This document shows positions 10,101-29,805 of a stretch of 32,000 nucleotides of DNA, piece by piece. A program made the position numbers and the translations under genes. Numbering within the stretch: the first letter of the stretch is position 1; the number at the start of each line of letters is the position of its first letter. Source of the stretch: Methanosphaera stadtmanae DSM 3091 (GTDB lineage: Archaea > Methanobacteriota > Methanobacteria > Methanobacteriales > Methanobacteriaceae); assembly GCF_000012545.1 (NCBI RefSeq), contig NC_007681.1, forward strand, positions 540,001 through 572,000. Direction: 5' to 3'. The notes under the pieces are model-generated. The model had not been told where the DNA came from, made no database searches, and saw nothing but the letters and a program-made list of their open reading frames with translations.

Positions 10101-10435
10101 TAAGCCCATACTATTTAACATACATCACAGAAGACAAAACAGTAGAATACAATTACACGCAATCTAAAAAAATAATGGACTACTATAAAAAACTATGCTC
10201 AGGTAAAACAGAAGTATATCAGGACCTAGTACAAATATTCAACAAAGAAACCAGAAATGGTATAAAAATGGATAAATATTCAGAACTATTACGACTAGCC
10301 ATAGAAAATACGCAAGGAAAAACAGAAGAAGTAGGAGTAAAAAGCCTATTCAGAAGAGGACCAACAACGCGCACAAAAAAAGATATTAATGGATTAGAAA
10401 ATTATGAATTAATAACATTCTTAATATTGATGTGA
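7195..10435 (+). pseudogene. SNF2-family helicase with N-terminal degenerate PLD-like domain, split into two ORFs (7195-8169 and 8159/8192-10435) by a frameshift in a T7 run
   Basis: GGTGAT RBS before ATG 7195. Motif I 'ADSVGLGKTYTALA' lies in ORF 1. Motif II 'VVIDESHNFRN', 'LMLSATPVNN' and 'SEGQNLQDCDYLINYDIHWNPVRIIQRFGRIDRIGS' lie in ORF 2. Removing one T from T7 (8161-8167) fuses the frames as ...NDNVIFFNEDRFNYDVLNHTDLS... The N-terminal 'IHLGNKEDEKCISINGTVDFTSDGLG' resembles an HKD/PLD motif with K replaced by G. Confidence 0.8.
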
Positions 10436-11184: not shown

Positions 11185-11193
11185 GTGACTATT

Positions 11194-12338
11194 ATGGAAA
11201 TCACGAAATTAAATTTAGAATCAGAAGATATTGTCCAAAACAATATAGAACAATTAAAGCAATTATTCCCTGAAATTGTTACTGAAGGTAAAATAGATTT
11301 TTATAAACTTAAAGAGGTTTTAGGTGATGAAATAGATGATGAAGATGAAAAATATGAATTTACATGGAATGGTAAACATGATGCTATTAGAGAGTTTCAA
11401 AAACCATCACATTGTACTTTAAGACCAGACAAAAATAATAGTAAAAATTGGAATACCACTGAAAATTTATATATAGAAGGTGATAATTTAGAAGTTTTAA
11501 AATTACTTCAAAAATCTTATCAAAGTAAAATTAAAATGATGTACATTGATCCTCCTTATAATACAGGTAATGACTCTTTTATATACAAAGATAATTTTCA
11601 AGAAAATGAAACTGAATATATAGAGAAAGAAGAAGAAAGAGGAAAATTTCAATCTAATCCCAATAGTTCTGGACGATACCATACAAACTGGATGAATATG
11701 ATTTATCCATTACTTCGATTAGCAAGAAACTTATTATCAGAAGAGGGCGTATTATTAATAAGTATTGATGATAATGAATTTTCTAATTTAATTGTCATGT
11801 GTAAAGAAATATTTGGTGAAGAAAATATAGATAACTTAATCTGGCAAAAAGTTGATAACGATTCTGGAAAAATGAAAATAACATATAGGGTACGATTAGA
11901 ACATGAATACGTGTTAATTTGTTATAAAAATAAAAATAAAACATACTTTAATAAATTTATCGAAGAAAGAAATTATAAAAATGAGTATGATAATCCTGAT
12001 AACGATCCTAGAGGACCATACAAACAAGCAATTATTTCATCAACAGAAGAAAAATCCAATAAAGATAGTCCTAATTATTATTCAATCACCACACCTTCCG
12101 GAAAAATATTTACCAGACAATGGAGAGTAAGTGAAGAAGAAATGTTAGAATTAATAGGAGAAGATAGGATTTATTTTGGGAAAAATGGAGATTCTGTACC
12201 TTCACTTAAAGCTTTTATTAATGAACCAAAATTATCAACACCTACCACTATATTAAGTGGTGTTGGAACTGCAAAAACTGCTGGAAAAGATATTGAAAAT
12301 ATGTTAGGTTCAAGAAAAATATTTTCTTATCCTAAACC
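11194..12338 (+). pseudogene. mod: Type III-like (beta-class) N6-adenine DNA methyltransferase Mod, 5' fragment truncated by an IS insertion
   Basis: RBS 'taggtga' before ATG 11194. Motifs seen: 'FTWNGK', 'LYIEGDNLEVLKLL', motif IV 'MYIDPPYNTGND', and 'FSYPKP' at the break point. The ORF-track tail WLSSCWVLKKF* (12339-12375) is read-through into the IS inverted repeat. Confidence 0.9.
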
Positions 12339-13867
12339 GTGGCTTTCCAGTTGCTGGGTCTTGAAAAAGTTTTGATCAAAAAAAATTTGAAAATTTATTT
12401 GAAGATGTAAAAATTTATTTCTTATCTTAATTTTTATTAAAATAAGAAAATAACGTTACACTTGAAATACACGACTCATCAAAATTCAACAAAAACTTTA
12501 ATATAAAAAATAAGAATAATAAACTATTTATTATAGAAAAGGAATAGATATTAATATGAAAACCCAAATATCTAATTCCTTAAAGGATAATATGTCCTCA
12601 ATACAACTTAAACTTAACGATTTTGGTCTCAAAGATCCAATTAAAAAAAATACTGAAGAACTCTTTAAAACTAAAAATACAAGACCTATCAACCAAGAAT
12701 ATGTTTATTTAAATGATAATCACTTTGAATATGATAACCCCACCTGTTCACATTGTCACAAAAAACACGAAAAACATAAAGTTATTAAAAAAGGATTCCG
12801 AACAAGAAAAGTCAGAACAACAAATAAAACCAAAATAACAATATTTTTAAGACGTTATCAATGTAAAACATGTGGAAAAAAATTCCAAACAGAATTATCA
12901 TGGCTATATGATAAAAATAAAAGATACACTAAACAATTTTTTGAATTGATAGATAAAATAATGGAATTTAGAAATATACCATTATCTCTACTACAACATA
13001 TAATAAACGTAGTTCTAAATACTAATATAAATCTTCAAACACTTGAATTTTGGATAAAAATAAAAAATAAATTCTCTAGAAACAAAGAATACTTAAAAAT
13101 AGAACTAATTAAAGATAAAAACATGATAATCAATCATAACATCATTGGATCAGGAATTTATAACTACGACGAACAATACATTAAAATCAACGGAAAAAAA
13201 TACTATCGATTAACACTATACGACTACTCCAAAGACCAACCAATCGCAGAACAAATCATAAAGAAAGAATGGAATAAAAAATCACTCTCAAGCAAAACAA
13301 TAGAAGAATTCATAAAAACAGCAACAAAAGAACGACCATTCAAAGCACTAATAACAGACGGAAAAAAACAATACAACGAAATAGCAAAAAAACTACGTGT
13401 ACAACACCAAACATGTATATTCCACGCAATAAAATACATAAAGGACGAAACAAAAAAATACTTAAGATCAAAAACACTATCAACATTAGATAAAATTACA
13501 ATTGCAAACCAAACATCACAAATATGCCAAATATATAGAGAATTAAGTATTTATGATACATACAAAACACTAAATGAACTAAAAGACATAGAAAACCAAC
13601 TATTAAAACCAATCAAAAAAATACTAAACACCACAGTAGAAAACAACATAAACAAAATAATAACACACCACTTATACTCTGAAATACCAAGAACAAACAA
13701 CGCAGTAGAACAATACTACAGAAACTCTTTACCAAAATCAAAGAAAAACAAAAAAAGAACCATTGACGGCGTACTAACAACAATAGCAACTGAAATGATG
13801 AAAAAATTTAAAAATACAAAAGAAAAATAAATATTCAAAAATCAAGACCCGACAACTGGAAAGCCAC
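12339..13867 (+). mobile_element. 1529-bp insertion sequence (ISM1-like?) with 26-bp imperfect terminal inverted repeats and an 8-bp target-site duplication
   Basis: IRL is 12339-12364, GTGGCTTTCCAGTTGCTGGGTCTTGA. The reverse complement of IRR (13842-13867) is GTGGCTTTCCAGTTGTCGGGTCTTGA, giving 24/26 identity. It is flanked by direct repeats CCTAAACC at 12331-12338 and 13868-13875. Deleting 12339-13875 restores an in-frame mod: ...FSYPKPKELIKHLINMVTD... Confidence 0.9.
12556..13830 (+). CDS. IS transposase (DDE type with N-terminal CxxC...CxxC zinc finger)
   Basis: 424-aa ORF filling the IS. Zinc finger: 'CSHCHKK...CKTCGKKF'. Candidate DDE residues lie in 'YNYDEQYIKING', 'ALITDGKKQY' and 'NNAVEQYYRN'. 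Confidence 0.85.
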   Translation: MKTQISNSLKDNMSSIQLKLNDFGLKDPIKKNTEELFKTKNTRPINQEYVYLNDNHFEYDNPTCSHCHKKHEKHKVIKKGFRTRKVRTTNKTKITIFLRRYQCKTCGKKFQTELSWLYDKNKRYTKQFFELIDKIMEFRNIPLSLLQHIINVVLNTNINLQTLEFWIKIKNKFSRNKEYLKIELIKDKNMIINHNIIGSGIYNYDEQYIKINGKKYYRLTLYDYSKDQPIAEQIIKKEWNKKSLSSKTIEEFIKTATKERPFKALITDGKKQYNEIAKKLRVQHQTCIFHAIKYIKDETKKYLRSKTLSTLDKITIANQTSQICQIYRELSIYDTYKTLNELKDIENQLLKPIKKILNTTVENNINKIITHHLYSEIPRTNNAVEQYYRNSLPKSKKNKKRTIDGVLTTIATEMMKKFKNTKEK

Positions 13868-13875
13868 CCTAAACC

Positions 13876-14671
13876 AAAAGAATTAATTAAACATTTAATT
13901 AACATGGTTACGGATACTAATTATTCACTAAATCCAAATTATCCAAAATCTAGAAAAATTTTTTATCCTGGAGTAAAAATGTCAACTTCAAAACCAGAAC
14001 AAAATATAATATTAGATTTCTTTTCAGGTTCTGCAACAACAGCAGAAGCTGTGATGGATTTAAATCTTCAAAATAATTTAAATAATAAATTTATCATGAT
14101 TCAATATCGTGAAAAAACAGATGAAAAATCTGAAGCCTACAAACAAGGTTATAATACAATTTGTGAAATAGGTGAAGAACGTATACGTCGAGCTGGTGAT
14201 AAATTGTTAGATGAACATCCAGATAGTAATATAGATATTGGTTTTAAAGTTCTGAAATTAGACACCTCAAATTTTAAAGAATGGGATCCTAGTGATAGTC
14301 CTTTAGAAGAATATCTTGATGATAGTGTGATTAATGTAAAAGAAGATAGAACTGATTTAGATTTTATTTATGAAATCATGATAAAATATGGAATTGAATT
14401 AACATCACCTATAGAAGAAATTAAAAAATCTAATTATACATTCTATTCTGTTGGTTATGGAGCATTAATAGTTTGTTTAGATGATAAAGTAAATGAAGAC
14501 GTAACTGAGGAAATAATTGAAATAATAAATGAAATAGAAATAGTCGATGAAAATAAGAAACACAAGAATAGGGTTGTATTTAAAGATATTAGTTTCTTAG
14601 ATGATTCTGTAAAAACTAACATTATCCAAGTACTAGAAAACAACAACATTGAAGACTTTATTACTTATTAA
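13876..14671 (+). pseudogene. mod: Mod methyltransferase, 3' fragment (SAM-binding motif I region)
   Basis: This frame is continuous with the right TSD copy (CCT AAA CCA AAA GAA...). It contains 'ILDFFSGSATTAEAVMDLN' (motif I, FxGxG-like) and 'ICEIGEERIRRAG'. Motif order IV then I across the two fragments indicates a beta-class permuted MTase. Confidence 0.9.
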
Positions 14672-14685
14672 GTTGGTGATTGTTC

Positions 14686-17673
14686 ATGGAATTAAATTTT
14701 GAATCAAATTTGGAATACCAACAAGATGCTATTGGTTCTATTGTAGATTTGTTTAATGGCCAAGCTTCTGATAATTCCCCTTTTCAACTTGGTGGTTTTT
14801 ATAGAACAACTACTTTAGATGATTATGGTAAAACAGCCAGTAATATTGGTATTGGAAATCGTCTTGATTTACGTGAGGACATAATATTAGAAAATATTAG
14901 AAAGGTACAATTAAAAAATGAAATTACTCCTACAGACAACATTAACAAAAGTAAATTAAAATTTACTGTTGAAATGGAAACAGGAACTGGTAAAACTTAC
15001 GTTTATCTTAGAAGTATTTTTGAATTAAATAAAAATTATGGTTTCACTAAGTTTATTATAGTTGTTCCTAGTCTTGCTATCAAAGAAGGAGTTAAAAAAA
15101 CATTAGATATAACACGAAACCACTTCAAAGGATTATATGATAATCCAATTTATAATTATTTTGTTTATAATAGCAGTAGATTAAATGATATTCATAATTT
15201 TGTTGTGGATAACAATATTAATATTATGATTATTAATATAGATTCATTTAATAAGGATTTAAACTTAATAAATCAACCACAAGATACATTACAGGGTAAC
15301 CGCCCGATTGATTTAATTGCTCAAACAAATCCATTTATTATTATTGATGAACCTCAATCTATCACTGCTAAAAAAGATGGTAAAGGTGAACAAGCTATCG
15401 AAAGATTAAATCCTTTATGTACAGTGAGTTTTTCAGCAACCCCTCCAGACAATAGTGAAAACTATATTTATAAATTAAATGCTGTGGATGCATATAATAA
15501 AAAATTAGTTAAACAGATAGAAGTTGATTCTATTTTATCACATAATGATCATAATTCTCCATATATGAAACTAGTTGAAGTTAAAGCTAAACCTTATAGT
15601 GCTAAAATTGAAATAGATGCTAATGTTAAAGGTGTAACTAAAAGAAAAACTGTGAAAGTCAAAAATAAAACTGATTTATCTGATTTATCTAAACGTGAAA
15701 TTTATACGGGATATATTGTTGATAATATCATTTGTTCTGAAGGCAGAGAATCTGTAGAATTTACTAATGGAGAACGAATTAAATTAAATCTTGCTGTTGG
15801 AGAAACTAATGAAAAACTTATTAAGCGAGAATTAATTCATTACACAATTAAAGAACATTTAGATAAAGAGTTACGCCTTCTTAAAAAAGGTATTAAAGTT
15901 TTATCATTATTCTTTATTGATAAAGTAGCAAATTATAGAATCTACGATAAAGAAGGAAATCCAAATTTAGGAGATTACGCTGTCATATTTGAAGAAGAAT
16001 ATAAGAAACTAATTAAAGAAGATAAATACAAATCACTCATGGAATACAATAATATCAATGTAGATATTAGTCAAGTTCATAACGGTTATTTTGCTCAAGA
16101 TAAAAAAGGTTTTAAAGATACAAATGGTAAAGGAAAACTAGACAATGATGCTTATAATCTTATAATGAAAGATAAAGAAAGATTATTAAATATGAAAACT
16201 CCTTTAAGATTTATTTTCTCTCATTCTGCTTTACGAGAAGGATGGGATAATCCTAATGTGTTCCAAATATGTACTCTTAATGAAACTAGGTCAAAAATGA
16301 AAAAACGACAAGAAATTGGTCGTGGTTTAAGATTATGTGTAGATCAAGATGGAAATAGAATTAAAAATAATCCGAATATTAATATTTTAACTGTTATGGC
16401 TAATGAAAGTTATGATCAATTTGCTGAAGGATTACAAAAAGAAATTGAAGAAGATACTGGAATTAAATTTAATAGAATAACTGACACATCATTTAGTTTC
16501 ACAAAATATACTAATAGAAAAGGTGATGAAGAAGAGTTAGGTGATCAGAAATCAAAATTAATCTATAAATATCTTGAAGCGAATGGTTATATTAAAAAAG
16601 ATGGTAAGATATTACCTCAACTTGAAATTGATATTGAGAAGGGTGAATTTAAATTAGCTCCAATAGTAGAAGATATTGCCAGTGATAAAGAAGAATTACG
16701 TAATAATATAATAAATGAAATTCGCACATTAACTGCACCTCCAATAGTTAAAAAACGTGGTGATAGAAAAACTATAAAACTAGATTATGACAAGTATAAA
16801 AAAGAAGATTTCTATAAAATATGGAATAAAATTAAACATAAATCCATGTATAAAGTACAATTTGACACGGAACGATTAATTGAAGAATGTTCTAAACGTT
16901 TGCATGAAGAATTAAACATTGGTAATCCTACGGTAATATTTACTAAAGCAGGTTATAAAATTGAATATAGTGGTATTGAACCACAAGAGGAAATTTGGGA
17001 TGTGATTGAATCACAGGGAGATAGTGTAGATTTACCAAACATATTACAATATTTACAAAATGAAACTACACTTACTAGAAAAACGCTTGCCCGAATTTTA
17101 ATTCAAAGTGAAACTTTAAATCAATTTAAGAAAAATCCTGAAGAATATAAAGAACAAACTCTTCTAATAATCAAAGAGGAATTAAGAAGATTCTTAGTAG
17201 ATGGAATTGCATATACCAAAATTGAAGATTGCTATGATGAAGATGAATTTGAAAGACATGAACTTTTCCGTTATGTTAATGAACTAGGAGAAGATGATAA
17301 ATCAGAAAGAAGTTATAAATCTCCTTATGAATACACTATATTTGATTCAGGTATTGAAAAATCATTCCAAGAAAAACTTGAATTCAGTAATTTAATTAAA
17401 TTTTATATGAAGTTACCAGGATGGTTTGAAATAGATACTCCTATAGGTAAATATAATCCAGACTGGGCAATATTAGTAGAAAGAGAAGGTAAAGAAGAGT
17501 TATATTTCATTGTTGAAACAAAAGGAACGAGTAATATTAAAGAACTAAAACCATCCGAACAATACAAAATTAAATGTGGAATAGAACATTTCAAAGCATT
17601 AGATGAAAGTATACAATTTGAAGTTGAAAGTGATTTTGAAGAATTTAAAATGGACACAATAAGTAAATATTAA
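14686..17673 (+). CDS. res: Type III restriction enzyme Res subunit (SF2 helicase plus C-terminal PD-(D/E)xK nuclease), apparently intact
   Basis: GGTGA RBS before ATG 14686; the track start at 14680 is a TTG. Motifs seen: 'METGTGKTYVY', 'FIIIDEPQS', 'SFSATP', 'SALREGWDNPNVFQICTL', 'QEIGRGLRL'. The C-terminal 'YNPDWAILVE...YFIVETKG' is the nuclease core. Confidence 0.9.
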   Translation: MELNFESNLEYQQDAIGSIVDLFNGQASDNSPFQLGGFYRTTTLDDYGKTASNIGIGNRLDLREDIILENIRKVQLKNEITPTDNINKSKLKFTVEMETGTGKTYVYLRSIFELNKNYGFTKFIIVVPSLAIKEGVKKTLDITRNHFKGLYDNPIYNYFVYNSSRLNDIHNFVVDNNINIMIINIDSFNKDLNLINQPQDTLQGNRPIDLIAQTNPFIIIDEPQSITAKKDGKGEQAIERLNPLCTVSFSATPPDNSENYIYKLNAVDAYNKKLVKQIEVDSILSHNDHNSPYMKLVEVKAKPYSAKIEIDANVKGVTKRKTVKVKNKTDLSDLSKREIYTGYIVDNIICSEGRESVEFTNGERIKLNLAVGETNEKLIKRELIHYTIKEHLDKELRLLKKGIKVLSLFFIDKVANYRIYDKEGNPNLGDYAVIFEEEYKKLIKEDKYKSLMEYNNINVDISQVHNGYFAQDKKGFKDTNGKGKLDNDAYNLIMKDKERLLNMKTPLRFIFSHSALREGWDNPNVFQICTLNETRSKMKKRQEIGRGLRLCVDQDGNRIKNNPNINILTVMANESYDQFAEGLQKEIEEDTGIKFNRITDTSFSFTKYTNRKGDEEELGDQKSKLIYKYLEANGYIKKDGKILPQLEIDIEKGEFKLAPIVEDIASDKEELRNNIINEIRTLTAPPIVKKRGDRKTIKLDYDKYKKEDFYKIWNKIKHKSMYKVQFDTERLIEECSKRLHEELNIGNPTVIFTKAGYKIEYSGIEPQEEIWDVIESQGDSVDLPNILQYLQNETTLTRKTLARILIQSETLNQFKKNPEEYKEQTLLIIKEELRRFLVDGIAYTKIEDCYDEDEFERHELFRYVNELGEDDKSERSYKSPYEYTIFDSGIEKSFQEKLEFSNLIKFYMKLPGWFEIDTPIGKYNPDWAILVEREGKEELYFIVETKGTSNIKELKPSEQYKIKCGIEHFKALDESIQFEVESDFEEFKMDTISKY

Positions 17674-19328: not shown

Positions 19329-22037
19329 TTAGTCATATATTTCGAATATTTCTAATAATTCTTCTTTTATTCTGTTTCTTTTTACTCTTCGTTCTTTGAA
19401 TTTAGGTTTATTGATGAAACTTGCTTCTATCATCGTGGTATCCATTATTCCTGAGAATTGGTATTCATCAATTAGTTTACGTGTTGCAGTTTCATCTAGA
19501 TTTTCTTTTTCTATGAGGTTACAGAATGCTTGTCTACGTTCGTTTCTCATAAATTCATAGAATTTTTCCTCTACAGTCATTTCTGTTCTATCAAAAGTTC
19601 CCAGTACTTTTTCAATGAATTTTTCTATCAATGTGTTTTTATTTCTTAATTGTTCTGTTTCTTTGGTGATTTTCTTAATTCTTTCAAGATCTTTTTCATA
19701 ATTTGCATCATCTTTGTTCAAGTATTTTAACAATCCAAGAATATAATCCACATTAATAGTGTCATCACGTATTAATTCAAGTTCGAAGTCAATGTCATGT
19801 AGTGGTGATTCTGGTTCTCCATCATTTTTAATTTCATCGTATATGTCGAGGTATACGCTTTTGTGGTCATTGTATTCTTGTTCATCCATATCCAAGTCAT
19901 CGAAGGTGAATTCTGGGAATGTGTCTAGTTTGCTTTTTATTCTGTTTAATTCACGGAAGTTTTCTACATATTCTTTTATTTCTGTTTCACTTTCTAGGTT
20001 TTGTGCATCTTCAACTGTTTGTGTCAACTCAAGGAACTTTTTGTATGCTTCATTGAATTCATCCACATATGTTTGGTAGTCTTTCATTAATAGATCTTCT
20101 AATGGTTCGTTGTCTGAGAATAAGGTTAATGCTTCATCTGTTTCTGCACTTATATCTCTAAAGCAGATAATGTTTCCATAAGCTTTGCTTTTGTCGAATA
20201 TACGGTTGGTTCTGGAAAATGTTTGTAATAATGTGTGGTACTGTAGGTTTTTATCCACGTATAATGTGTTTAGTCTTGGGCAGTCAAATCCTGTTGTGTA
20301 CATGTCTTTTACTAGTAAGAGGTCGATTTCTCTTTTTTCCATTCTGTTAGATATGTCTATGTTGTATTCTTTAAATGTTTCTGGACTGAAGTTGGTTCCA
20401 AATGTTTGGTTGTAGTCTTCCATATATTCTGAAAGGTATGAGTAATCTGATTTTCCATTGGTATCCTCTGAATTTGGGTTAGCATTGTATATTGCTGCTA
20501 TTTTAAGTTCAGGTGCTTTTTCTTTTAGTATTCTGTAGTATTTGTTTATAAATTTTCCTCGTGATACAGTAAACATGGCATTGAATTTACCGTTATGTGT
20601 TTTACTAGGATATGTTTCAAGCAGTTTTTCCACATTTTTTTCCAGTCGTTTATCTTTCATTAACATTTCTTCATATGCTAATGAGTTTACGTCTACGTCA
20701 TCTTTGCTTATTGGAACTGATTCATAGTATTGTATGGAGAATCCTAGTACGTTGTTGTCTCTTATTGCGTCTTTTATCATGTAGGTGTGTAGTCTTTTTC
20801 CGAATATTGTTTTTGTTGTTTTGTTTCCTCCGGAATTTTCTACAAATATTGGTGTTCCTGTAAATCCGAAGCATAGACTGTTTGTGAAGAAATCTATTAT
20901 GCTTTGATGCATTTTTCCGAATTGTGATCTGTGACATTCATCATATATGAAGATGATTCTTTTGTCTTTCATTTGTGCTACTTTAGTTTGATGTTTAGTT
21001 GCAACATTGCTTAATTTCTGTATCGTTGTGATGATAAGTTTAGTTTTTGATGAATTAAGTTTTTTAATTAATGAATAGGTATTGTATACTTTTGCTACAC
21101 TGTCTTTTTCGTACTGGTTGAACCGTTTCATTGTTTGTGTATCCAGGTCTTTTCTGTCTACAACAAATACTACCTTGTCAATATTTGGGTCTTCTGATAG
21201 TATTTGGCTGGTTTTGAATGAGGTTAGTGTTTTTCCACTTCCTGTGGTGTGCCATACGTAACCGTTTTGTTTGATTTTGGTTGCTTGTCTTATTATTTCT
21301 TCTACGGCATATTTTTGGTATGCTCTTAGTATCATGATGTTTTTGTCTATTTGGTTTAGTACCATGAATTGTGTTATCATTTTGGCGAGGTTGCATTTTT
21401 CTAGGAATGTTTGTGAGAATTCTGCTAATTGTTTGATGTTGCGGTTTTCTTTGTTTTTCCAGAAATATGTGTATTCAAATTTCATGGAGCTTGGTATTCC
21501 TGTTGCAAAGTATTTGGTGTCTACACCATTGCTTATTACGAATATTTGTATGTATTGGAATAGTCCTTTGAATGTTGGCAGGTATCGTTCTTTGATTTGG
21601 TTGAATGCCTGTTTGATTTCCACGCCACGTTTTTTAAGTTCTATTTGCACTAGTGGTAGTCCGTTTATGAGTAATGTTACATCATATCTGAAGTTGTGTT
21701 TGTTCTTTGATTTTATTTGGTGTGCTACTTGGAAGTAGTTTTTGCACCATTCGTCTTTATTGATAAATCTTATCCATTTGTCTGCCTGTCCTTCTCTTTG
21801 GAGTGTGTAACTGTCTCTTAGTTTTTGTGCTTTATCGAATATGGTTCCCTGTTTTAGAAAGAGCAATATTTTTTCAAATTCATCATCTGTGAATGTTATG
21901 TTGTTGAATTTTTCTAGTTGTCTTCTAAAGTTTTGTTCTAATTCTTCATCATTTCTTATAGTGATTTTTTCATAACCATTGTTTGCTAGATCATCTACTA
22001 GTATATCTTCTAATGCTGATTCAGATTGTGTTGACAT
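19329..22037 (-). CDS. hsdR: Type I restriction enzyme R subunit HsdR
   Basis: 902-aa ORF. The N-terminus 'SESALEDILVDDLANNGYEKI' looks like HSDR_N. Helicase motifs: 'HTTGSGKTLTSF', 'FIYDECHRSQFG', 'FGFTGTPIF', 'TGFDCPRLNTLYVDK', 'QTFSRTNR'. Confidence 0.9.
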   Translation of the reverse strand: MSTQSESALEDILVDDLANNGYEKITIRNDEELEQNFRRQLEKFNNITFTDDEFEKILLFLKQGTIFDKAQKLRDSYTLQREGQADKWIRFINKDEWCKNYFQVAHQIKSKNKHNFRYDVTLLINGLPLVQIELKKRGVEIKQAFNQIKERYLPTFKGLFQYIQIFVISNGVDTKYFATGIPSSMKFEYTYFWKNKENRNIKQLAEFSQTFLEKCNLAKMITQFMVLNQIDKNIMILRAYQKYAVEEIIRQATKIKQNGYVWHTTGSGKTLTSFKTSQILSEDPNIDKVVFVVDRKDLDTQTMKRFNQYEKDSVAKVYNTYSLIKKLNSSKTKLIITTIQKLSNVATKHQTKVAQMKDKRIIFIYDECHRSQFGKMHQSIIDFFTNSLCFGFTGTPIFVENSGGNKTTKTIFGKRLHTYMIKDAIRDNNVLGFSIQYYESVPISKDDVDVNSLAYEEMLMKDKRLEKNVEKLLETYPSKTHNGKFNAMFTVSRGKFINKYYRILKEKAPELKIAAIYNANPNSEDTNGKSDYSYLSEYMEDYNQTFGTNFSPETFKEYNIDISNRMEKREIDLLLVKDMYTTGFDCPRLNTLYVDKNLQYHTLLQTFSRTNRIFDKSKAYGNIICFRDISAETDEALTLFSDNEPLEDLLMKDYQTYVDEFNEAYKKFLELTQTVEDAQNLESETEIKEYVENFRELNRIKSKLDTFPEFTFDDLDMDEQEYNDHKSVYLDIYDEIKNDGEPESPLHDIDFELELIRDDTINVDYILGLLKYLNKDDANYEKDLERIKKITKETEQLRNKNTLIEKFIEKVLGTFDRTEMTVEEKFYEFMRNERRQAFCNLIEKENLDETATRKLIDEYQFSGIMDTTMIEASFINKPKFKERRVKRNRIKEELLEIFEIYD

Positions 22038-22268: not shown

Positions 22269-22832
22269 ATGACCTACAAAAAACTATCAGAAATAGCAGA
22301 AATATTCACAGGAATACGAATATCAAGATACAAAAACATAGTAGAAGGAACCAAAACCAAAATACTACTAAACAAACTACAAAACAACCAAATAGAATAC
22401 GAAGAAATACAAATAAACAAACCACACCAAAAATACTACTCACAAAAAGACGACATCATAATACACCTATCAGACACAACCAGCATCACACTACTAAAAG
22501 AAGAAAACATACTCATACCACTAAACTACGCAATACTAAGACTCAAACCAGGATACCATGCAGAATACGTATACCAAATACTAAAAAGCACACACTTCCA
22601 AAACGCTATTAAACGGATAAGTGAAGGTAGTAGTATAAAATTCGTTAAAATAAACGACTTAAAAGATATAAAAATACAAATCCTAGAACAGGACAAACAA
22701 GAAAAATACGCAAAAATTATGGAATTATTAAATAAAAGAACCTTATTAAATAGGAGAAAAATAGAAATAGAAGAAGAATATCTTCATGGAATAATACAAA
22801 AAGAATTAGGTGGTCAATATGTCAAATTATGA
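22269..22832 (+). CDS. half-size HsdS-like specificity protein (single TRD plus one helical conserved region)
   Basis: 187-aa ORF with a GGGGAGG RBS. It has the TRD-style opening 'KLSEIAEIFTGIRISRY' and a C-terminal helix 'EQDKQEKYAKIMELLNKRTLLNRRKIEIEEEYL'. Its stop overlaps the hsdM start. Confidence 0.65.
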   Translation: MTYKKLSEIAEIFTGIRISRYKNIVEGTKTKILLNKLQNNQIEYEEIQINKPHQKYYSQKDDIIIHLSDTTSITLLKEENILIPLNYAILRLKPGYHAEYVYQILKSTHFQNAIKRISEGSSIKFVKINDLKDIKIQILEQDKQEKYAKIMELLNKRTLLNRRKIEIEEEYLHGIIQKELGGQYVKL

Positions 22833-24345
22833 AACAAAATTATGGGCAATAGCAGATAAACTAAGAGGAAATATGGATGCAAACGAATTCAAAAACTACA
22901 TGTTAGGGTTCATATTTTACCGATACCTCTCAGAAAAACTGGAAATGACACTCAACGAATTACTTGAAGAAGATGGAATAAACTTCCAAGAAGCATACCA
23001 GGATGAAGAACTCATAGAAGACCTAAAAGAAGAAGGAATCGAAAAACTAGGATACTTTATACAACCAAAATACCTCTTCAGCAGTGTCATCAATGAAATT
23101 GATAAAGGAAGAGAAATACTTGAATGTTTAAGCAATGCATTCATAGAAATCAACGATTCATCGTTCAACACAGAAAGTCAGGACGACTTCCAAAACCTAT
23201 TTGAAGATGTAGATTTAAATTCATCCAAATTGGGAAATACCAATGCAGAAAAAAACAAATTAATCTCAGGTATACTACAAGACATTAGTGATATAGACTT
23301 TGAGTTAGAAAAAGATAATTCTGATATACTTGGTGATGCATATGAATATCTTATCAGTCAATTTGCATCAAGTGCAGGTAAAAAAGCAGGAGAATTCTAC
23401 ACACCACAAGAAGTATCAACCATACTTGCAAGAATAGTAACACTAAACAAAACCAGACTCAAAAGTGTCTATGACCCAACATGTGGAAGTGGATCATTAC
23501 TTCTAAGAGTAAGTAAAGAAGCAGATGTATCAGAATTCTATGGACAAGAACTAAACCAGACAACATACAACCTAGCAAGAATGAACATGATACTACACGG
23601 AGTCAAATACAACCACTTCAACATAAAACAGGGAGATTCACTTGAAAATGACAGACACGAAGAGCTTAAATTTGATGCTGTAGTAGCAAATCCACCATTT
23701 AGTGCAAAATGGAGCAGTGACAAATCATTCATAAATGATGAAAGATTCTCCGGATACGGAAAACTAGCACCAAAAAGTAAAGCAGACTATGCATTTGTAC
23801 AGCACATGATATACCACCTCAACGAACAGGGAACACTAGCAGTAGTACTGCCACACGGAGTATTATTTAGAGGAGCAGCAGAAGGCACCATAAGAAAATA
23901 CCTAATCAAAGAACTAAACTACCTAGATGCTGTAATAGGATTACCAAAAAATATCTTCTATGGAACTAGCATACCAACATGCATACTCGTATTCAAAAAA
24001 TGTCGTGAAGAAGATGACAATATACTCTTCATAGATGCATCAGAATACTATGAAAAAGCTAAAAATCAAAATAAACTACGACCAGAAGACATAGAAAAAA
24101 TAGTTACAACATACAAAAATAGGGAAGAAATAGAAAAATACTCACATAAAGCAACAATTGAAGAAATTGAAGAAAATGATTACAACCTAAACATACCAAG
24201 ATACGTTGACACGTTCGAGGAAGAAGAACCAATAGATTTAGATGAAGTAGTACGTGAAATACGTAAAATAGATGAAGAAATGAAAGAAGTAGATGCAAAA
24301 ATCATAAAATATTGCAAAGAATTAGGAATAGAACCACCAATATAA
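22819..24345 (+). CDS. hsdM: Type I N6-adenine DNA methyltransferase HsdM
   Basis: RBS 'taggtgg' before ATG 22819. HsdM_N-like 'KLWAIADKLRGNMDANEFKNYMLGFIFYRYLSE'. Motif I is 'YDPTCGSGSLLL' and motif IV is 'VVANPPFSAKW'. Confidence 0.92.
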   Translation: MSNYETKLWAIADKLRGNMDANEFKNYMLGFIFYRYLSEKLEMTLNELLEEDGINFQEAYQDEELIEDLKEEGIEKLGYFIQPKYLFSSVINEIDKGREILECLSNAFIEINDSSFNTESQDDFQNLFEDVDLNSSKLGNTNAEKNKLISGILQDISDIDFELEKDNSDILGDAYEYLISQFASSAGKKAGEFYTPQEVSTILARIVTLNKTRLKSVYDPTCGSGSLLLRVSKEADVSEFYGQELNQTTYNLARMNMILHGVKYNHFNIKQGDSLENDRHEELKFDAVVANPPFSAKWSSDKSFINDERFSGYGKLAPKSKADYAFVQHMIYHLNEQGTLAVVLPHGVLFRGAAEGTIRKYLIKELNYLDAVIGLPKNIFYGTSIPTCILVFKKCREEDDNILFIDASEYYEKAKNQNKLRPEDIEKIVTTYKNREEIEKYSHKATIEEIEENDYNLNIPRYVDTFEEEEPIDLDEVVREIRKIDEEMKEVDAKIIKYCKELGIEPPI

Positions 24346-24355
24346 AGGGGATTAT

Positions 24356-25573
24356 ATGTGTAAAATTACAAAAGAAAATGACTCTTTGCAAAGACAAACA
24401 GAAAATAAAGATGAAGATAGTCAGGAATTGCAATGTAATAAAAACATACCAGAACTACGATTTCCAGAGTTTGAAGGGGAATGGATTACTTATAAATTAT
24501 GTGATGTAGTAACAAGAATCATTAGAAAAAATAAAAATTTAGAAACGAAAAGACCTTTGACTATTTCTGCTAAATACGGATTAATAGATCAAATAGAATT
24601 TTTTGATAAATATGTGGCCAGTAAAAATTTAAAAGGATATTACTTATTAAAAAAAGGTGAATTTGCATATAATAAAAGTTATTCTAATGGATTTCCTTAT
24701 GGTGCTGTGAAAAGATTAGATTTATATAATCAAGGAGCTATATCTACATTATACATTTGTTTTGAAATTACAAATAAGATCAATAGTAATTTTTTAAAAA
24801 TATATTTTGATTCGAATAAATGGAATAAAGAAATGTATAAGATAGCTGTAGAAGGTGCTAGAAATCATGGATTATTAAATATACCCATTAATGATTTTTT
24901 TAATACGAAACATCTTTTTCCTTCAATTTCTGAACAAGAAAAAATAGCTGATTTCTTATCAGCTATTGATAAAAAGATTGGGTTCATGGAAAAGGAAATC
25001 AATAAACAATCAAAATATATGAAAAAAATAAGAGAAAATATTCTTAATGATAATTCTGATAACTCAAATAAAGTTCAATTAAAAGAAATATGTATAATAA
25101 ACAAAGGAAAACAATTAAATAAAACAAATATGATTAATGATGGAAAATATTATGTGCTAAATGGTGGTAAAACACCGTCAGGTTTTACAAATTCATGGAA
25201 CGTCCCAGAAAATACTATTAGTATTAGTGAAGGTGGAAATTCTTGCGGATTTGTCAATTATAATGTTCAAAAATTCTATTGTGGAGGACATTGTTATTAT
25301 TTAACAAATATTTCTGATGAAATAGATCCCTTGTTATTATATCATTGTCTTAAAATGAATGAAAATAAAATTATGAATTTAAGAGTAGGTTCTGGACTTC
25401 CAAACATACAAAAAAAAGATTTAGAAAAGTATAAACTGTATATTCCTACAAAAAACCATGAAAAAATTACATATCTATTAAATAATATAAATTTAAAAAT
25501 AGATTTAAATAAAGAGAAATTAAATCATTTAAAACAATTTAAAAAAGGACTACTCCAGAAAATGTTTTGTTAA
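24356..25573 (+). CDS. hsdS: Type I specificity subunit HsdS, expression-site allele (TRD1-alpha / TRD2-beta)
   Basis: RBS 'aagggga' before the ATG, 10 nt after the hsdM stop. It has two TRDs separated by 'SEQEKIADFLSAIDKKIGFMEK...' and ends with 'FKKGLLQKMFC'. Confidence 0.9.
   Translation: MCKITKENDSLQRQTENKDEDSQELQCNKNIPELRFPEFEGEWITYKLCDVVTRIIRKNKNLETKRPLTISAKYGLIDQIEFFDKYVASKNLKGYYLLKKGEFAYNKSYSNGFPYGAVKRLDLYNQGAISTLYICFEITNKINSNFLKIYFDSNKWNKEMYKIAVEGARNHGLLNIPINDFFNTKHLFPSISEQEKIADFLSAIDKKIGFMEKEINKQSKYMKKIRENILNDNSDNSNKVQLKEICIINKGKQLNKTNMINDGKYYVLNGGKTPSGFTNSWNVPENTISISEGGNSCGFVNYNVQKFYCGGHCYYLTNISDEIDPLLLYHCLKMNENKIMNLRVGSGLPNIQKKDLEKYKLYIPTKNHEKITYLLNNINLKIDLNKEKLNHLKQFKKGLLQKMFC
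24417..24994 (+). repeat. IR1 left copy: 578-bp perfect inverted repeat (hsdS 5' conserved region plus TRD1)
   Basis: I compared it block by block with the reverse complement of 27862-28439 and found no mismatch. Identity breaks at 24416/28440 and at 24995/27861. Confidence 0.95.
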
Positions 25574-25600
25574 TTTATATGAAATTACACATAATACTTT

Positions 25601-25978
25601 ATGAAAGACAACAAACATTTACTTAAATTTTCTAAGGATCGAAATATAAAAAATAGTACAATGAAAGGTTATATCTCTACTTTAAAGAGGTATACTTCTT
25701 TTCATAACATGACAATAGATGAATTATTAAATGAAGCATATGCTGATGAAGAAAAAAGAATTCTTCTTAAAAATAGACGAATTAAGAATCGTTTATTGGA
25801 TTATAGAACACATCTTATTTCTCTTGACATGTCACATAATACTGTTAAAACCTATTTTTCTAAACTTATCACCTTTTATTTACATTTTGAAATTGAAATA
25901 CCAAAACTTCCTGATCTTAAATATAATAAAAACTATGAAACAAATTACTTTGATCTTCCAACAAAAAAAAACATATAA
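25601..25978 (+). CDS. tyrosine recombinase, N-terminal core-binding (SAM-like) domain ORF
   Basis: 125-aa ORF. 'TMKGYISTLKRYTSFH...HNTVKTYFSKLITFYLHFEI' is typical of phage-integrase N-terminal domains. It ends just after an A9 run, and its TAA overlaps the next ATG (TAATG). Confidence 0.7.
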   Translation: MKDNKHLLKFSKDRNIKNSTMKGYISTLKRYTSFHNMTIDELLNEAYADEEKRILLKNRRIKNRLLDYRTHLISLDMSHNTVKTYFSKLITFYLHFEIEIPKLPDLKYNKNYETNYFDLPTKKNI

Positions 25979-26643
25979 TGGAAGCTCTTAATTATGTTTC
26001 ACTTGGTTTTCAAGCATTAATTCTTTTCATGTCATCATCAGGTACAGCAAAAGCTGAAACATTATCATTAACAGTGAATGATTTTATAATAGGTGCAAGT
26101 GAATACTATAAAAGTACTGATTTAATGGATATTCTAGAAGAACTTGATTTACGTGATGATATTGTTCCTACATTATATTTAAGAAGAATAAAAACTGATA
26201 AATATTATTATACATTCTGTTCTACAGAAGCAAGCAAATACATAATACGCTATTTGAAAACAAGACAAAATCTTTCATTAAATGATAAACTTTTTCCATA
26301 TAGTAGTTCTCTTGTTATAACAAAATTTCAATATATTAATGATAAAATGAATTGGGGATTTAAAGGAAAATATAGATTTTTTAGAACACATACACTAAGA
26401 AAATTTCATGCATCTAATATAAAACTAAGTGCTGAATACATAGATGCTCTTCAAGGTCGAAGTAAAAATACAGTACATGAAACATACATTAAAACAAATC
26501 CTAAAGAACTAAAAGAAATATATGTTAAATCAATGAAGAATATATTAATTCTGGAAGAAGAAACAAAGACTAGAGAAATTAAGGAAGATATACACATAAC
26601 AATAAATATTTTCCTATCAGATACATCATATAATATTTATTAG
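25978..26643 (+). CDS. tyrosine recombinase, C-terminal catalytic domain ORF
   Basis: 221-aa ORF with 'FRTHTLRKFHAS' (HxxR box II) and 'VHETYIK' (candidate Tyr nucleophile). The box I region 'SSSGTAKAETLSL' has Lys where Arg is expected. One extra A in the A9 run at 25963-25971 would fuse it to the upstream ORF. Confidence 0.75.
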   Translation: MEALNYVSLGFQALILFMSSSGTAKAETLSLTVNDFIIGASEYYKSTDLMDILEELDLRDDIVPTLYLRRIKTDKYYYTFCSTEASKYIIRYLKTRQNLSLNDKLFPYSSSLVITKFQYINDKMNWGFKGKYRFFRTHTLRKFHASNIKLSAEYIDALQGRSKNTVHETYIKTNPKELKEIYVKSMKNILILEEETKTREIKEDIHITINIFLSDTSYNIY

Positions 26644-26647
26644 AAGT

Positions 26648-27250
26648 ACGTTATACCAAAATATAAAGAAATATTATTTAGAAAATCTATTTCCAAAAGA
26701 AAATGAAACTATACCTAATCTACGGTTTTTAGAATTTAACAATGATTGGATAAAAACTACATTGGGTAATTGTGTAATTTTCTTAGATGAAAAAAGAATT
26801 CCTTTGAATCAACAAATACGAAGTCAAATGTTATCTAAATACCCATATTATGGTGCTGCAGGAATCATTGATTATGTGAATAATTATATTTTTGATGATG
26901 AATTAATATTATTAGGTGAAGATGGTTCTATTATTCCCACATTAGCTTCAGGAAAATGTTGGGTTAGTAATCATGCACATGTACTTAAAAATAAAAAAAA
27001 TATCAATTTATATTTCTTATATAATATTTTATCTAAAATTCATTTTGAAAAATACAATACTGGTACTATCCAACCAAAATTAAACAAAAAAACGGCAAAA
27101 AACATCAAAATTAAAATAACTTCCAAAAAAGAACAAGAAAAAATTGTTGATTTTATGTTATCAATAGGAACAAAAATAAAAAAAATTCAAAAACAGATAA
27201 AATTTCTAAAAACGTTCAAAAAAGGATTATTACAGAAAATGTTTTGTTAA
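26648..27250 (+). pseudogene. hsdS: silent hsdS half-cassette (central conserved region plus TRD2-gamma plus C-terminal conserved region), start-less
   Basis: The in-frame translation begins ...TLYQNIKKYYLENLF...NLRFLEFNNDWIKTTLGNCV... and continues into the track ORF 26762-27250, whose listed M is a TTG. TRD hallmarks are 'YPYYGAAGIIDYV' and 'WVSNHAHVL'. It ends with 'FKKGLLQKMFC'. There is no ATG or RBS at the head. Confidence 0.8.
26651..26678 (+). repeat. IR2 left copy: 28-bp perfect inverted repeat TTATACCAAAATATAAAGAAATATTATT
   Basis: Identical to the reverse complement of 27825-27852. It encodes the LYQNIKKYY conserved-region segment at the head of both alternative TRD2 cassettes. Confidence 0.9.
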
Positions 27251-28428
27251 ACAAACATCTTTTGAAGTAAATCCTTTTTATATCTTTTTTCATAATTTAT
27301 TTTCTTACTTAAATATTCTAATTTAATATCAATATTAGATAATATATTAACAATATTTATTTGTGTTTCATACGATGGAATCCTAATAGGAATCATATTT
27401 AAGGTTTCTTTATTCAAAGTTATTCCTTTTGCTGCTTGTGAGCCATATTTTTTTAAATTAATTGAACTTAAATAATAATACATAAATTCTGTATTTATAT
27501 TTTTATTTTTCCATTGAAAATTACATATTGCTTCATTAGAATACATATCCTCTTTTAATATTCCTAATTTACCAATAGTTAATTTAAAACTCATAACAAG
27601 AGTATCTTTCTTTATGATCTCTTTTTTACCAATAGCTATTTTAGTAATATGTTTTTTAGTTTTTGAAATATATTTACTTCCCATATCACTTACAGCCAAC
27701 CATTTAATGTTACCATTCCAATATTCTTCTTTTTTAGTTGAAGGTGTAAATCCCATTTTAATAATAGCAATATCTTTTAGGTTCTTTTTGTTCCAATCAC
27801 TAGTATTGGAAAATAAAACATGTGAATAATATTTCTTTATATTTTGGTATAATGTATGTTTCTTTTCCATGAACCCAATCTTTTTATCAATAGCTGATAA
27901 GAAATCAGCTATTTTTTCTTGTTCAGAAATTGAAGGAAAAAGATGTTTCGTATTAAAAAAATCATTAATGGGTATATTTAATAATCCATGATTTCTAGCA
28001 CCTTCTACAGCTATCTTATACATTTCTTTATTCCATTTATTCGAATCAAAATATATTTTTAAAAAATTACTATTGATCTTATTTGTAATTTCAAAACAAA
28101 TGTATAATGTAGATATAGCTCCTTGATTATATAAATCTAATCTTTTCACAGCACCATAAGGAAATCCATTAGAATAACTTTTATTATATGCAAATTCACC
28201 TTTTTTTAATAAGTAATATCCTTTTAAATTTTTACTGGCCACATATTTATCAAAAAATTCTATTTGATCTATTAATCCGTATTTAGCAGAAATAGTCAAA
28301 GGTCTTTTCGTTTCTAAATTTTTATTTTTTCTAATGATTCTTGTTACTACATCACATAATTTATAAGTAATCCATTCCCCTTCAAACTCTGGAAATCGTA
28401 GTTCTGGTATGTTTTTATTACATTGCAA
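27247..28428 (-). CDS. hsdS: silent (archived) full-length hsdS allele, TRD1-alpha / TRD2-delta, lacking an ATG and its own hsdM or promoter context
   Basis: Residues 2 to about 190 are identical to the expression-site HsdS (IR1). A different central region 'KHTLYQNIKKYY' and TRD ('GFTPSTKKEEYWNGNIKWL', 'SNEAICNF') follow, ending in 'LLQKMFV'. The listed start is a TTG. It converges on the gamma cassette, sharing TTAA (27247-27250) as overlapping stops. Confidence 0.8.
   Translation of the reverse strand: MQCNKNIPELRFPEFEGEWITYKLCDVVTRIIRKNKNLETKRPLTISAKYGLIDQIEFFDKYVASKNLKGYYLLKKGEFAYNKSYSNGFPYGAVKRLDLYNQGAISTLYICFEITNKINSNFLKIYFDSNKWNKEMYKIAVEGARNHGLLNIPINDFFNTKHLFPSISEQEKIADFLSAIDKKIGFMEKKHTLYQNIKKYYSHVLFSNTSDWNKKNLKDIAIIKMGFTPSTKKEEYWNGNIKWLAVSDMGSKYISKTKKHITKIAIGKKEIIKKDTLVMSFKLTIGKLGILKEDMYSNEAICNFQWKNKNINTEFMYYYLSSINLKKYGSQAAKGITLNKETLNMIPIRIPSYETQINIVNILSNIDIKLEYLSKKINYEKRYKKDLLQKMFV
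27825..27852 (-). repeat. IR2 right copy
   Basis: Reverse complement equals 26651-26678 exactly. Confidence 0.9.
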
Positions 28429-28439
28429 TTCCTGACTAT
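27862..28439 (-). repeat. IR1 right copy
   Basis: Reverse complement equals 24417-24994 exactly. Confidence 0.95.
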
Positions 28440-28605: not shown

Positions 28606-29805
28606 CTATTCTTTAGATATTTTAATCATTTCATTTAGGAGTGTGTGGCCAATTATTGTATCGTATTTTCCTTGGCTCATGTCTTCTGAGAAAATTTGTG
28701 TATCATCTGGTGTTTTTATATTTGTACTGTATATTGCAAATGGTACTGGTGACATTGTATGTGTTTTTATGTTAATTGGTGTTGGATGGTCTGGTAGTAG
28801 GGCTATTGTATAATCTTCATCTATATTTGGTAGTTCTTTTAATAATTTTTCAAGTATGATACTGTCAATGTTTTCTATTGCTCTTATTTTTTCAGGTAGA
28901 TTTCCTTCATGTCCTGCTTCATCTGGTGCTTCAATGTGTATAAATTGTACATCATGTGTTTTTAGTGATTCGAGTGCATAGTCTACTTTGTTTTGATAAT
29001 TTGTATCGAAGTATGCTGTTGCTCCAGGAACTTCTATTACATCTAAATCAATATATGTACTTATTCCTTTTAATAGGTCTACTCCGGTGATTGTAGCTCC
29101 TTTTAGTCCATATTTTTCTGGGAAGTTTCCAATTACTGGTTTTGCTCCTTGTCCCCATAACCATATCATGTTTGCTGGTAGTTTTCCTTCTTCTATTCTT
29201 TTTTTGTTTACTGGATGGTTTTCTAAAACTTCAACTGAATCTTCCATTAATTTGTTTATTAGTTTTGATTTTTCATTTTCTGGTTTTAGGTTGTTATTGC
29301 TTGTTTGTTGTCCTACAACATCATGTGGTGGTGTGGATTTTAAATCTTCCATTGCAATATCTGAAATTACAAATAAGTTTCTGTAACTTACTCCTGTATA
29401 GAATTGTCCTATATCACCAAAATGTTCATTTAATGCTTTTATAAGTTCATCTGCTTCTTCTGTTGTGATATGATCTGCTGTAAAATCATTGATGGCTCCA
29501 TCTTTTACATTTATGAAGTTAAGACGGAATGCCACGTCATTATCATTGAGTTCTACTCCAACACTTGGTGCTTCTAGTGGTCCTCTTCCTTTGAGCATTG
29601 ATGGATCAAATCCCATAATTGATGTGTTTGCAACATCACTACCTGGAGTCATTCCATCAGGAACATTTTTTGTAAGTCCTGTGTATCCTTCTCTTGCTAT
29701 AAAGTCCATATTTGGAGTATTTGCATGAACTACTGGAGTTTCACCATTGATTTCATCTAATGGCTCATCAGCCATACCATCTGCTATTACTATTACGTAT
29801 TTCAT
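28606..29805 (-). CDS. apgM: archaeal-type cofactor-independent phosphoglycerate mutase
   Basis: 399-aa ORF. 'MKYVIVIADGMADEP', 'HIEAPDEAGHEGN' and 'LLPDHPTP' are the characteristic ApgM metal-site motifs. Confidence 0.85.
   Translation of the reverse strand: MKYVIVIADGMADEPLDEINGETPVVHANTPNMDFIAREGYTGLTKNVPDGMTPGSDVANTSIMGFDPSMLKGRGPLEAPSVGVELNDNDVAFRLNFINVKDGAINDFTADHITTEEADELIKALNEHFGDIGQFYTGVSYRNLFVISDIAMEDLKSTPPHDVVGQQTSNNNLKPENEKSKLINKLMEDSVEVLENHPVNKKRIEEGKLPANMIWLWGQGAKPVIGNFPEKYGLKGATITGVDLLKGISTYIDLDVIEVPGATAYFDTNYQNKVDYALESLKTHDVQFIHIEAPDEAGHEGNLPEKIRAIENIDSIILEKLLKELPNIDEDYTIALLPDHPTPINIKTHTMSPVPFAIYSTNIKTPDDTQIFSEDMSQGKYDTIIGHTLLNEMIKISKE

Follow-up and report, generated by a model that had tools for sequence, protein, structure and literature searches.

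Type I restriction-modification (R-M) systems in which the specificity gene, hsdS, is rearranged by inversion are known from several bacteria. In SpnD39III/ivr (cod; CreX/PsrA) of Streptococcus pneumoniae, one expressed hsdS gene stands behind hsdM and is accompanied by inverted silent partial copies, nested pairs of inverted repeats (IRs) of very unequal length lie in the N-terminal and central conserved regions, and a tyrosine recombinase is encoded within the locus. In Bacteroides fragilis (PMC7641763) and in the hsd/HvsR system of Mycoplasma pulmonis, which are likewise host- or gut-associated, inversions of hsdS half-genes give several specificities, and a dedicated tyrosine invertase is present. 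A locus of this design was studied in a stretch of 32,000 nucleotides (nt) of the archaeon Methanosphaera stadtmanae DSM 3091 (CP000102:540001-572000), which is referred to below as the window and whose positions are used throughout; its G+C content is 26.2%. A preliminary description of the window had already pointed to the bacterial precedents, and the match with all three of them was confirmed. It is very probable that the locus is a real multi-site hsdS inversion shufflon within a Type I R-M system.

Besides the features listed above, wild M. stadtmanae strains share with SpnD39III/ivr the logic of two first target recognition domains (TRD1) combined with three second ones (TRD2). The locus differs from SpnD39III/ivr in that its host is an archaeon, its tyrosine recombinase is recognisable by fold only, and an additional half-size hsdS gene is located upstream of hsdM. 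Furthermore, one TRD1 has been lost from the type strain, in which the recombinase gene is also frameshifted. In contrast to the invertases of B. fragilis and M. pulmonis, the M. stadtmanae enzyme belongs to a different clade, the family of which is confined to Methanobacteriaceae.

The system is therefore of a known kind, and the locus itself has already been catalogued. The present locus stands in the supplementary tables of the REBASE survey by Atack et al. 2020 (PMC7394358) as S1.MstDORF479P (CP000102 564356-565573), with an inverted repeat of 578 bp, and Huang et al. 2020 (PMC7672463) counted 4 euryarchaeotal inverton loci in REBASE and 11 in NCBI. Neither survey analysed the natural configurations of this locus, the recombinase frameshift or the second TRD1. 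Archaeal invertons were described as understudied by Chanin et al., archaea were excluded from the scan of Milman et al., and R-M invertases are unmentioned in a 2021 review on archaeal tyrosine recombinases. No experimental study of hsdS inversion or of phase-variable methylation in any archaeon was found in the literature. To this extent the novelty claimed earlier for a methanogenic archaeon held; however, because the locus and its 578-bp repeat stand in a published survey, the novelty is lower than had been implied. What the present analysis adds is the natural configurations, the architecture of wild strains, the degeneracy of the type strain and the finding that the recombinase is divergent and split.

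According to the map of open reading frames (ORFs) and Pfam, the gene order is hsdR (minus strand), a half-size hsdS of 187 amino acids (aa), hsdM, hsdS alpha-beta, the recombinase gene, TRD2 cassette gamma (plus strand), TRD2 cassette delta (minus strand), a second copy of alpha (minus strand) and a phosphoglycerate mutase gene. The expressed hsdS alpha-beta (24356..25573, plus strand; ABC56880.1, WP_011406080, S1.MstDORF479P), identified by the ORF map, Pfam and an exact look-up, encodes 405 aa; it has an ATG and the ribosome-binding site AAGGGGA and starts 10 nt after the hsdM stop codon. Its TRD2 cassette, beta, was delimited by sequence comparison at 24995..25573 (plus strand). Cassettes gamma (26679..27250, plus strand), which lacks a start codon of its own, and delta (27247..27824, minus strand) were found with the ORF map and Pfam, in which Methylase_S matched all the hsdS pieces. 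These two cassettes lie tail to tail and their stop codons overlap in TTAA (27247-27250), the gamma ORF ending at 27250 on the plus strand and the delta ORF at 27247 on the minus strand. The latter ORF is that of a silent hsdS' alpha-delta (27247..28428, minus strand; ABC56884.1; ORF map and exact look-up), in which the first 24 codons, the ATG and AAGGGGA are missing and which can be read as a 393-aa protein only from a TTG within the repeat.

The left arm of the longer repeat, IR1 (24417..24994, plus strand), starts with the N-terminal conserved region (24417-24485), continues through TRD1 alpha (24486-24930) and ends with the front half of the central conserved region (24931-24994); these internal boundaries were taken from strains with a different TRD1. 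The right arm (27862..28439, minus strand) carries these elements a second time and matches the left arm as its reverse complement over 578 nt with 0 mismatches, whereas extension to 581 nt gave 1 mismatch. Because IR1 begins 61 nt inside the expressed hsdS, the distal copy is devoid of the start region. Repeat comparison also gave the two arms of IR2 (26651..26678, plus strand, and 27825..27852, minus strand), which are 28 nt long with 0 mismatches and both encode LYQNIKKYY; this sequence had 2 matches in the window, while 0.00 were expected from 100 shuffles. Thus, the two perfect repeats, the tail-to-tail cassettes with a shared TTAA, the lack of an ATG and a ribosome-binding site in the minus-strand copy and the lack of a start codon in gamma, all of which had been reported in the preliminary description, were verified.

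The arrangement suggests that the hsdM-hsdS operon would express whichever TRD1-TRD2 pair stands behind hsdM. The second hsdS, which has neither a promoter nor a start, and the two tail-to-tail TRD2 cassettes, inverted and located downstream with the tyrosine recombinase gene between, would be joined to it by reciprocal recombination at the inverted conserved segments. Such recombination, at IR1 (578 bp) and IR2 (28 bp) in DSM 3091 and at pairs of 69 bp, 64 bp and 28 bp in wild strains, would rejoin the cassettes in frame and alter the bipartite target of the methyltransferase and endonuclease.

Four configurations were built in silico with each crossover set where the perfect repeat ends (junction residue K). 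The repeats sit in conserved regions, and all three hybrids stay in frame: the expressed HsdS proteins were predicted to be alpha-beta (405 aa), alpha-delta (417 aa) and alpha-gamma (415 aa), and the silent products alpha-delta (393 aa), alpha-beta (381 aa) and alpha-gamma (391 aa). When exact full-length look-ups were performed among about 15 billion proteins, every predicted HsdS product was found to have a match. Proteins of the reference configuration occurred in the reference genome of DSM 3091 only, and the recombinant proteins occurred in 1-6 metagenome contigs each. Expressed alpha-delta was present in 4 contigs, expressed alpha-gamma in 5-6 and silent alpha-beta in 6; silent alpha-gamma also had exact matches.

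Contigs with recombinant proteins were fetched from ENA/Logan assemblies of public gut metagenomes (L-numbers are contig labels) and oriented by the flanking phosphoglycerate mutase gene (28606..29805, minus strand) as a fixed anchor. Each of them gave one colinear alignment of 5-9 kb, at 99.3-99.9% identity, to one of the four layouts. The layout inverted at IR1 (INV1) was observed in L002 (7012 nt, 99.84%), L143/L144 (9242 nt, 99.76%) and L145. The doubly inverted layout (INV1+2) was observed in L004 (6674 nt), L005, L146/L147 (8750 nt, 99.6%) and L148 (5421 nt, 99.8%), and the layout inverted at IR2 (INV2) in L149 (7075 nt, 99.25%). The breakpoints coincided with the inner end of IR1 and with IR2. 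Between strains of differing configuration, the 5.4-kb hsdR-hsdM flank contained 0-2 single-nucleotide polymorphisms (SNPs), which indicates that the rearrangements are recent on the scale of point mutation. Two configurations (L001 and L008) were also seen for a more divergent allele of the locus, the hsdM of which is 79% identical. Considering the exact proteins together with the colinear contigs in all the inverted forms, it may be concluded that the shufflon rearranges in nature at the predicted sites. The anatomy and the in-frame products are established, and so is the fact that each of the four predicted configurations and every predicted protein exists in natural populations, the configurations being distributed between strains.

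The two TRD1 slots differ in most contigs. The second TRD1, eps (458 nt), occupies the hsdM-proximal slot in L004 and the distal one in L143 and L148 with 100% identity, and it was joined to beta in L064; the identity of eps in both slots indicates that the N-terminal repeat recombines too. The repeat pairs in wild strains are an N-terminal pair of 69 nt (24417-24485), a central pair of 64 nt (24931-24994) and the 28-nt IR2. The wild strains thus have a design of two TRD1 by three TRD2 with three IR pairs. Of the six proteins that this design allows, four (alpha-beta, alpha-delta, alpha-gamma and eps-gamma) were seen as complete called gene products, and the eps-beta junction was seen in L064, L143 and L148. 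Further cassettes beyond these were present in L146, L147 and L149. Because the pairwise identity of the TRDs was at most 32%, their specificities should differ.

In DSM 3091, alpha occupies both TRD1 slots, so that the two short repeats and TRD1 became fused into one 578-bp repeat. This long repeat is peculiar to the type strain, a reduced derivative with three rather than six specificities. The earlier prediction of three expressed S proteins sharing alpha was thus correct for DSM 3091, where the exact proteins were found, but it does not extend to wild strains with their larger set.

The recombinase was characterised mainly by its predicted structure. An AlphaFold (AF2) model obtained from 26 homologues had a mean predicted local distance difference test score (pLDDT) of 77.7. 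Foldseek matched this model with a probability of 1.0 to the archaeal XerA (5hxy, E 7e-7), IntI (2a3v), Cre, the Tn1549 integrase and lambda Int, that is, to the two-domain tyrosine recombinase fold consisting of core-binding and catalytic domains. Residues H263-x-x-R266 and Y295 are invariant and fit box II and the nucleophile. In Pfam, only sub-threshold SAM-like N-terminal matches were obtained, and NCBIfam and PADLOC gave no match. The family is likely a divergent group of tyrosine recombinases recognised by fold alone, and its active site is possibly atypical. It is essentially restricted to Methanobacteriaceae; the few bacterial labels of metagenome-assembled genomes in the family are probably binning errors. 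The order hsdS, recombinase, inverted hsdS recurs in contigs of Methanosphaera, Methanobrevibacter and Methanobacterium, in which the recombinases are approximately 60-75% identical.

The family was also found in other arrangements. In a contig of rumen Methanobacteriaceae (L017:4715-12270), hsdM-hsdS is followed by two inverted recombinase copies (1256-nt IR, 93% identity) and four hsdS pieces, a shufflon more elaborate than that of the window. In L028:9977-16577 (also L024-L031, L033, L042 and L078-L088), an approximately 63%-identical recombinase adjoins a 1192-aa enzyme that is Eco57I/MmeI-like and has TaqI_C as its specificity domain, and the neighbouring minus-strand ORF of 633 aa is an inverted copy, approximately 2 kb long and 70% identical, of the C-terminal part of this enzyme. 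To judge from their gene arrangement, loci of this type resemble a specificity shufflon of the Type IIG/PglX-like kind in archaea. In L074 and L096, family members are flanked by BrxL genes.

The homologues of the recombinase are single proteins of 344-347 aa, and an intact 346-aa form is present in most related contigs. In the window, the gene is divided into ORF1 (25601..25978, plus strand; 125 aa), which was assigned by the ORF map and Pfam to the core-binding/SAM-like domain, and ORF2 (25978..26643, plus strand; 221 aa), which was assigned by the ORF map, alignment and the model to the catalytic domain with HxxR and Tyr. The cause of the split is a tract of nine A residues (A9; 25963..25971, plus strand), where intact alleles have A7; a 99%-identical homologue (P0001) reads PTKKHIM at this site, which corresponds to the A7 run. 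A9 was found in the window and in L063, L064, L066, L067, L068 and L148, and A7 was found in 13 contigs; neither A8 nor A10 was seen among them. Because the Sanger-sequenced reference and six Illumina assemblies that are independent of one another all have A9, it is not a sequencing error. L065 was considered as a third state of the tract and was rejected, since this scaffold is a chimera, the upstream part of which is unrelated GC-rich sequence. In the AlphaFold model, the split falls at the linker/first helix of the catalytic domain (residue 122 onward), i.e., where the core-binding domain gives way to the catalytic one, and in the A9 allele the ORF1 stop overlaps the native Met126 codon, which is the start of ORF2, as TAATG. 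The gene is otherwise near-invariant across contigs (0-2 SNPs).

DSM 3091 combines the A9 allele with the reference layout and L148 combines it with the doubly inverted one, and both states of IR2 are represented among the A9 contigs (not inverted in L063, inverted in L066 and L068). This distribution would fit inversions older than the frameshift, recurrent mutation of the tract, or activity of the A9 allele via a split enzyme or slippage.

Several observations weigh against a shufflon that is working and driven by this recombinase. All the evidence for inversion was obtained between strains or samples and not within a clone, and no methylome data for M. stadtmanae were found in the literature searched. 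The recombinase gene is frameshifted in DSM 3091 and in at least six other assemblies. PF00589 was matched neither by P0001 nor by ORF2 of the window, the best homologue scoring 13.7 bits at a cut-off of 27.1, and the sequence search gave no PDB homologue. Ala149, next to a nearly invariant Lys150, is at the Arg-I position and Arg286 is at the His-III position in a weak hhalign alignment (E-value 0.4) with E. coli XerD. Finally, distant family members, which may be ordinary integrases, adjoin BrxL, Mrr, purD or PCNA genes. The tyrosine recombinase gene that had been placed in the invertible segment is thus supported by the fold match, but in the type strain it consists of two ORFs and it does not belong to PF00589 by score. 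Because of the frameshift, we can only infer for DSM 3091 that inversion is recombinase-driven. More generally, the encoded recombinase would catalyse the inversions, switching within a clone would be frequent, and the methylome would change with it.

The frameshift bears most directly on the possibility that the locus of DSM 3091 is a frozen relic, in which an ancestral shufflon worked and the type strain, having lost the recombinase by frameshift and one TRD1, is locked in the reference layout and produces alpha-beta only. The division of the gene into ORFs of 125 and 221 aa, the duplication of alpha in both slots and the restriction of the reference-configuration proteins to DSM 3091 within the collection searched are consistent with this explanation, which has a substantial chance of being right, though well below even. 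However, at least two configurations include A9 alleles, and the split at a domain boundary with the TAATG overlap could let both domains be made. Moreover, long perfect repeats support homologous recombination without any invertase, and the 578-bp repeat is a good substrate for it. In the preferred reading, that of a real shufflon, the type-strain copy is a partly degenerate derivative, with alpha in both slots and the recombinase split by A9. Switching in DSM 3091 may be slow, or it may rely on the residual or split recombinase or on RadA homologous recombination across the 578-bp repeat.

A bolder interpretation of the same facts, which we consider speculative and rather doubtful, is that the A9 allele, rather than being a dead pseudogene, would act as a switch of a second tier or would give a working enzyme in two parts. 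The Methanobacteriaceae-confined family without the canonical Arg-I would then be a dedicated invertase of R-M specificity, tuned by the length of the poly-A tract or by transcriptional slippage. In Methanobrevibacter, members of this family also appear to rearrange the target-recognition parts at the C-terminus of Eco57I-family (Type IIG/PglX-like) enzymes.

It is unlikely that the inversions are performed by RadA homologous recombination between duplicated hsdS segments, with the adjacent recombinase as an unrelated integrase remnant. The length of IR1 in DSM 3091, the missing Arg-I, the failure to match PF00589 and the housekeeping or mobile-element neighbours of some family members would agree with such a mechanism. 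Nevertheless, IR2 was inverted repeatedly (L004, L005, L066, L068 and L146-L149), and its 28 bp are short for efficient homologous recombination. In addition, the order hsdS, recombinase, inverted hsdS is kept across genera at the recombinase identities given above, and the same family flanks inverted C-terminal copies of Eco57I-family enzymes.

That the alternative configurations are chimeric joins produced at repeats during metagenome assembly is very improbable: although repeats break assemblies and some contigs do end at IR boundaries (L003, L064 and L067 at 26678-26680; L063 and L066 at 24993), at least 12 contigs that differ in sample and assembler (metaSPAdes, MEGAHIT k141 and Logan) concur, contigs of two-TRD1 strains cross repeats of 28-69 bp, which are shorter than the k-mers used, and each alternative layout was found in at least two independent samples, except INV2, which was found once. 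The contig ends at IR2 in L003, L064 and L067 were also considered as a sign of mixed populations; this was rejected because they are k=31 Logan contigs.

M. stadtmanae is immunostimulatory and is one of the two dominant archaea of the human gut. If its Type I specificity does switch, its methylome would be heterogeneous and its barrier to viruses and incoming DNA would change, as in pneumococcus and Bacteroides. Because all configurations are documented in nature and intact and frameshifted recombinase alleles both occur naturally, the locus lends itself readily to experimental tests. The wild system of two TRD1 by three TRD2 is probably poorly represented by the type strain, and short-read assemblies of the locus are expected to break or to differ between samples.

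The remaining components of the Type I system are complete, the hsdR, hsdM and hsdS ORFs all being intact with Pfam domains. The hsdR gene (19329..22037, minus strand; 902 aa) has HSDR_N, ResIII/SWI2_SNF2, T1R_D3-like and EcoR124_C domains, and hsdM (22810..24345, plus strand; 508-511 aa) has N6_Mtase (9.5e-119) and HsdM_N. The half-size hsdS (22269..22832, plus strand) encodes a single TRD, lies outside the invertible region and was recognised by Pfam Methylase_S (4.5e-7) and PADLOC Specificity_I (1e-13); an identical protein was found by exact-sequence look-up in 41 contigs. This gene is located upstream of hsdM, overlaps its start and is conserved across many strains and related species; an S gene upstream of the M gene was likewise seen in L017, L018, L071 and L075. 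The half-size HsdS could form a homodimer and thereby give the system an extra, constant palindromic specificity.

The left flank of the Type I locus varies between strains, with KAP NTPase and Mrr genes in some and HTH/Peptidase_M78 in others (L002:13437-20517; L143:1-2306; L146:360-1819). In L002 the hsdR/hsdM side is wholly replaced, and the cassettes and recombinase remain without a methyltransferase; in L149 only a C-terminal fragment of hsdR is present and hsdM is absent.

No Rfam families or tRNA genes were found in the window. Elsewhere in it, a Type III-like mod methyltransferase gene (11185-14671) is broken by an IS66-family transposase (12556-13830) into an N-terminal part (11185-12375) and a C-terminal part (13904-14671), and the matching Type III res gene (14680-17673; PADLOC REase_III, E-value 1.6e-303) is intact. 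A defence helicase of the HKD+Snf2 type (7195-10435), next to which a DUF4391 gene is located, is present as two ORFs (7195-8169 and 8192-10435) that both match a single 948-aa PADLOC model, and it may be another frameshifted defence gene of the same island.

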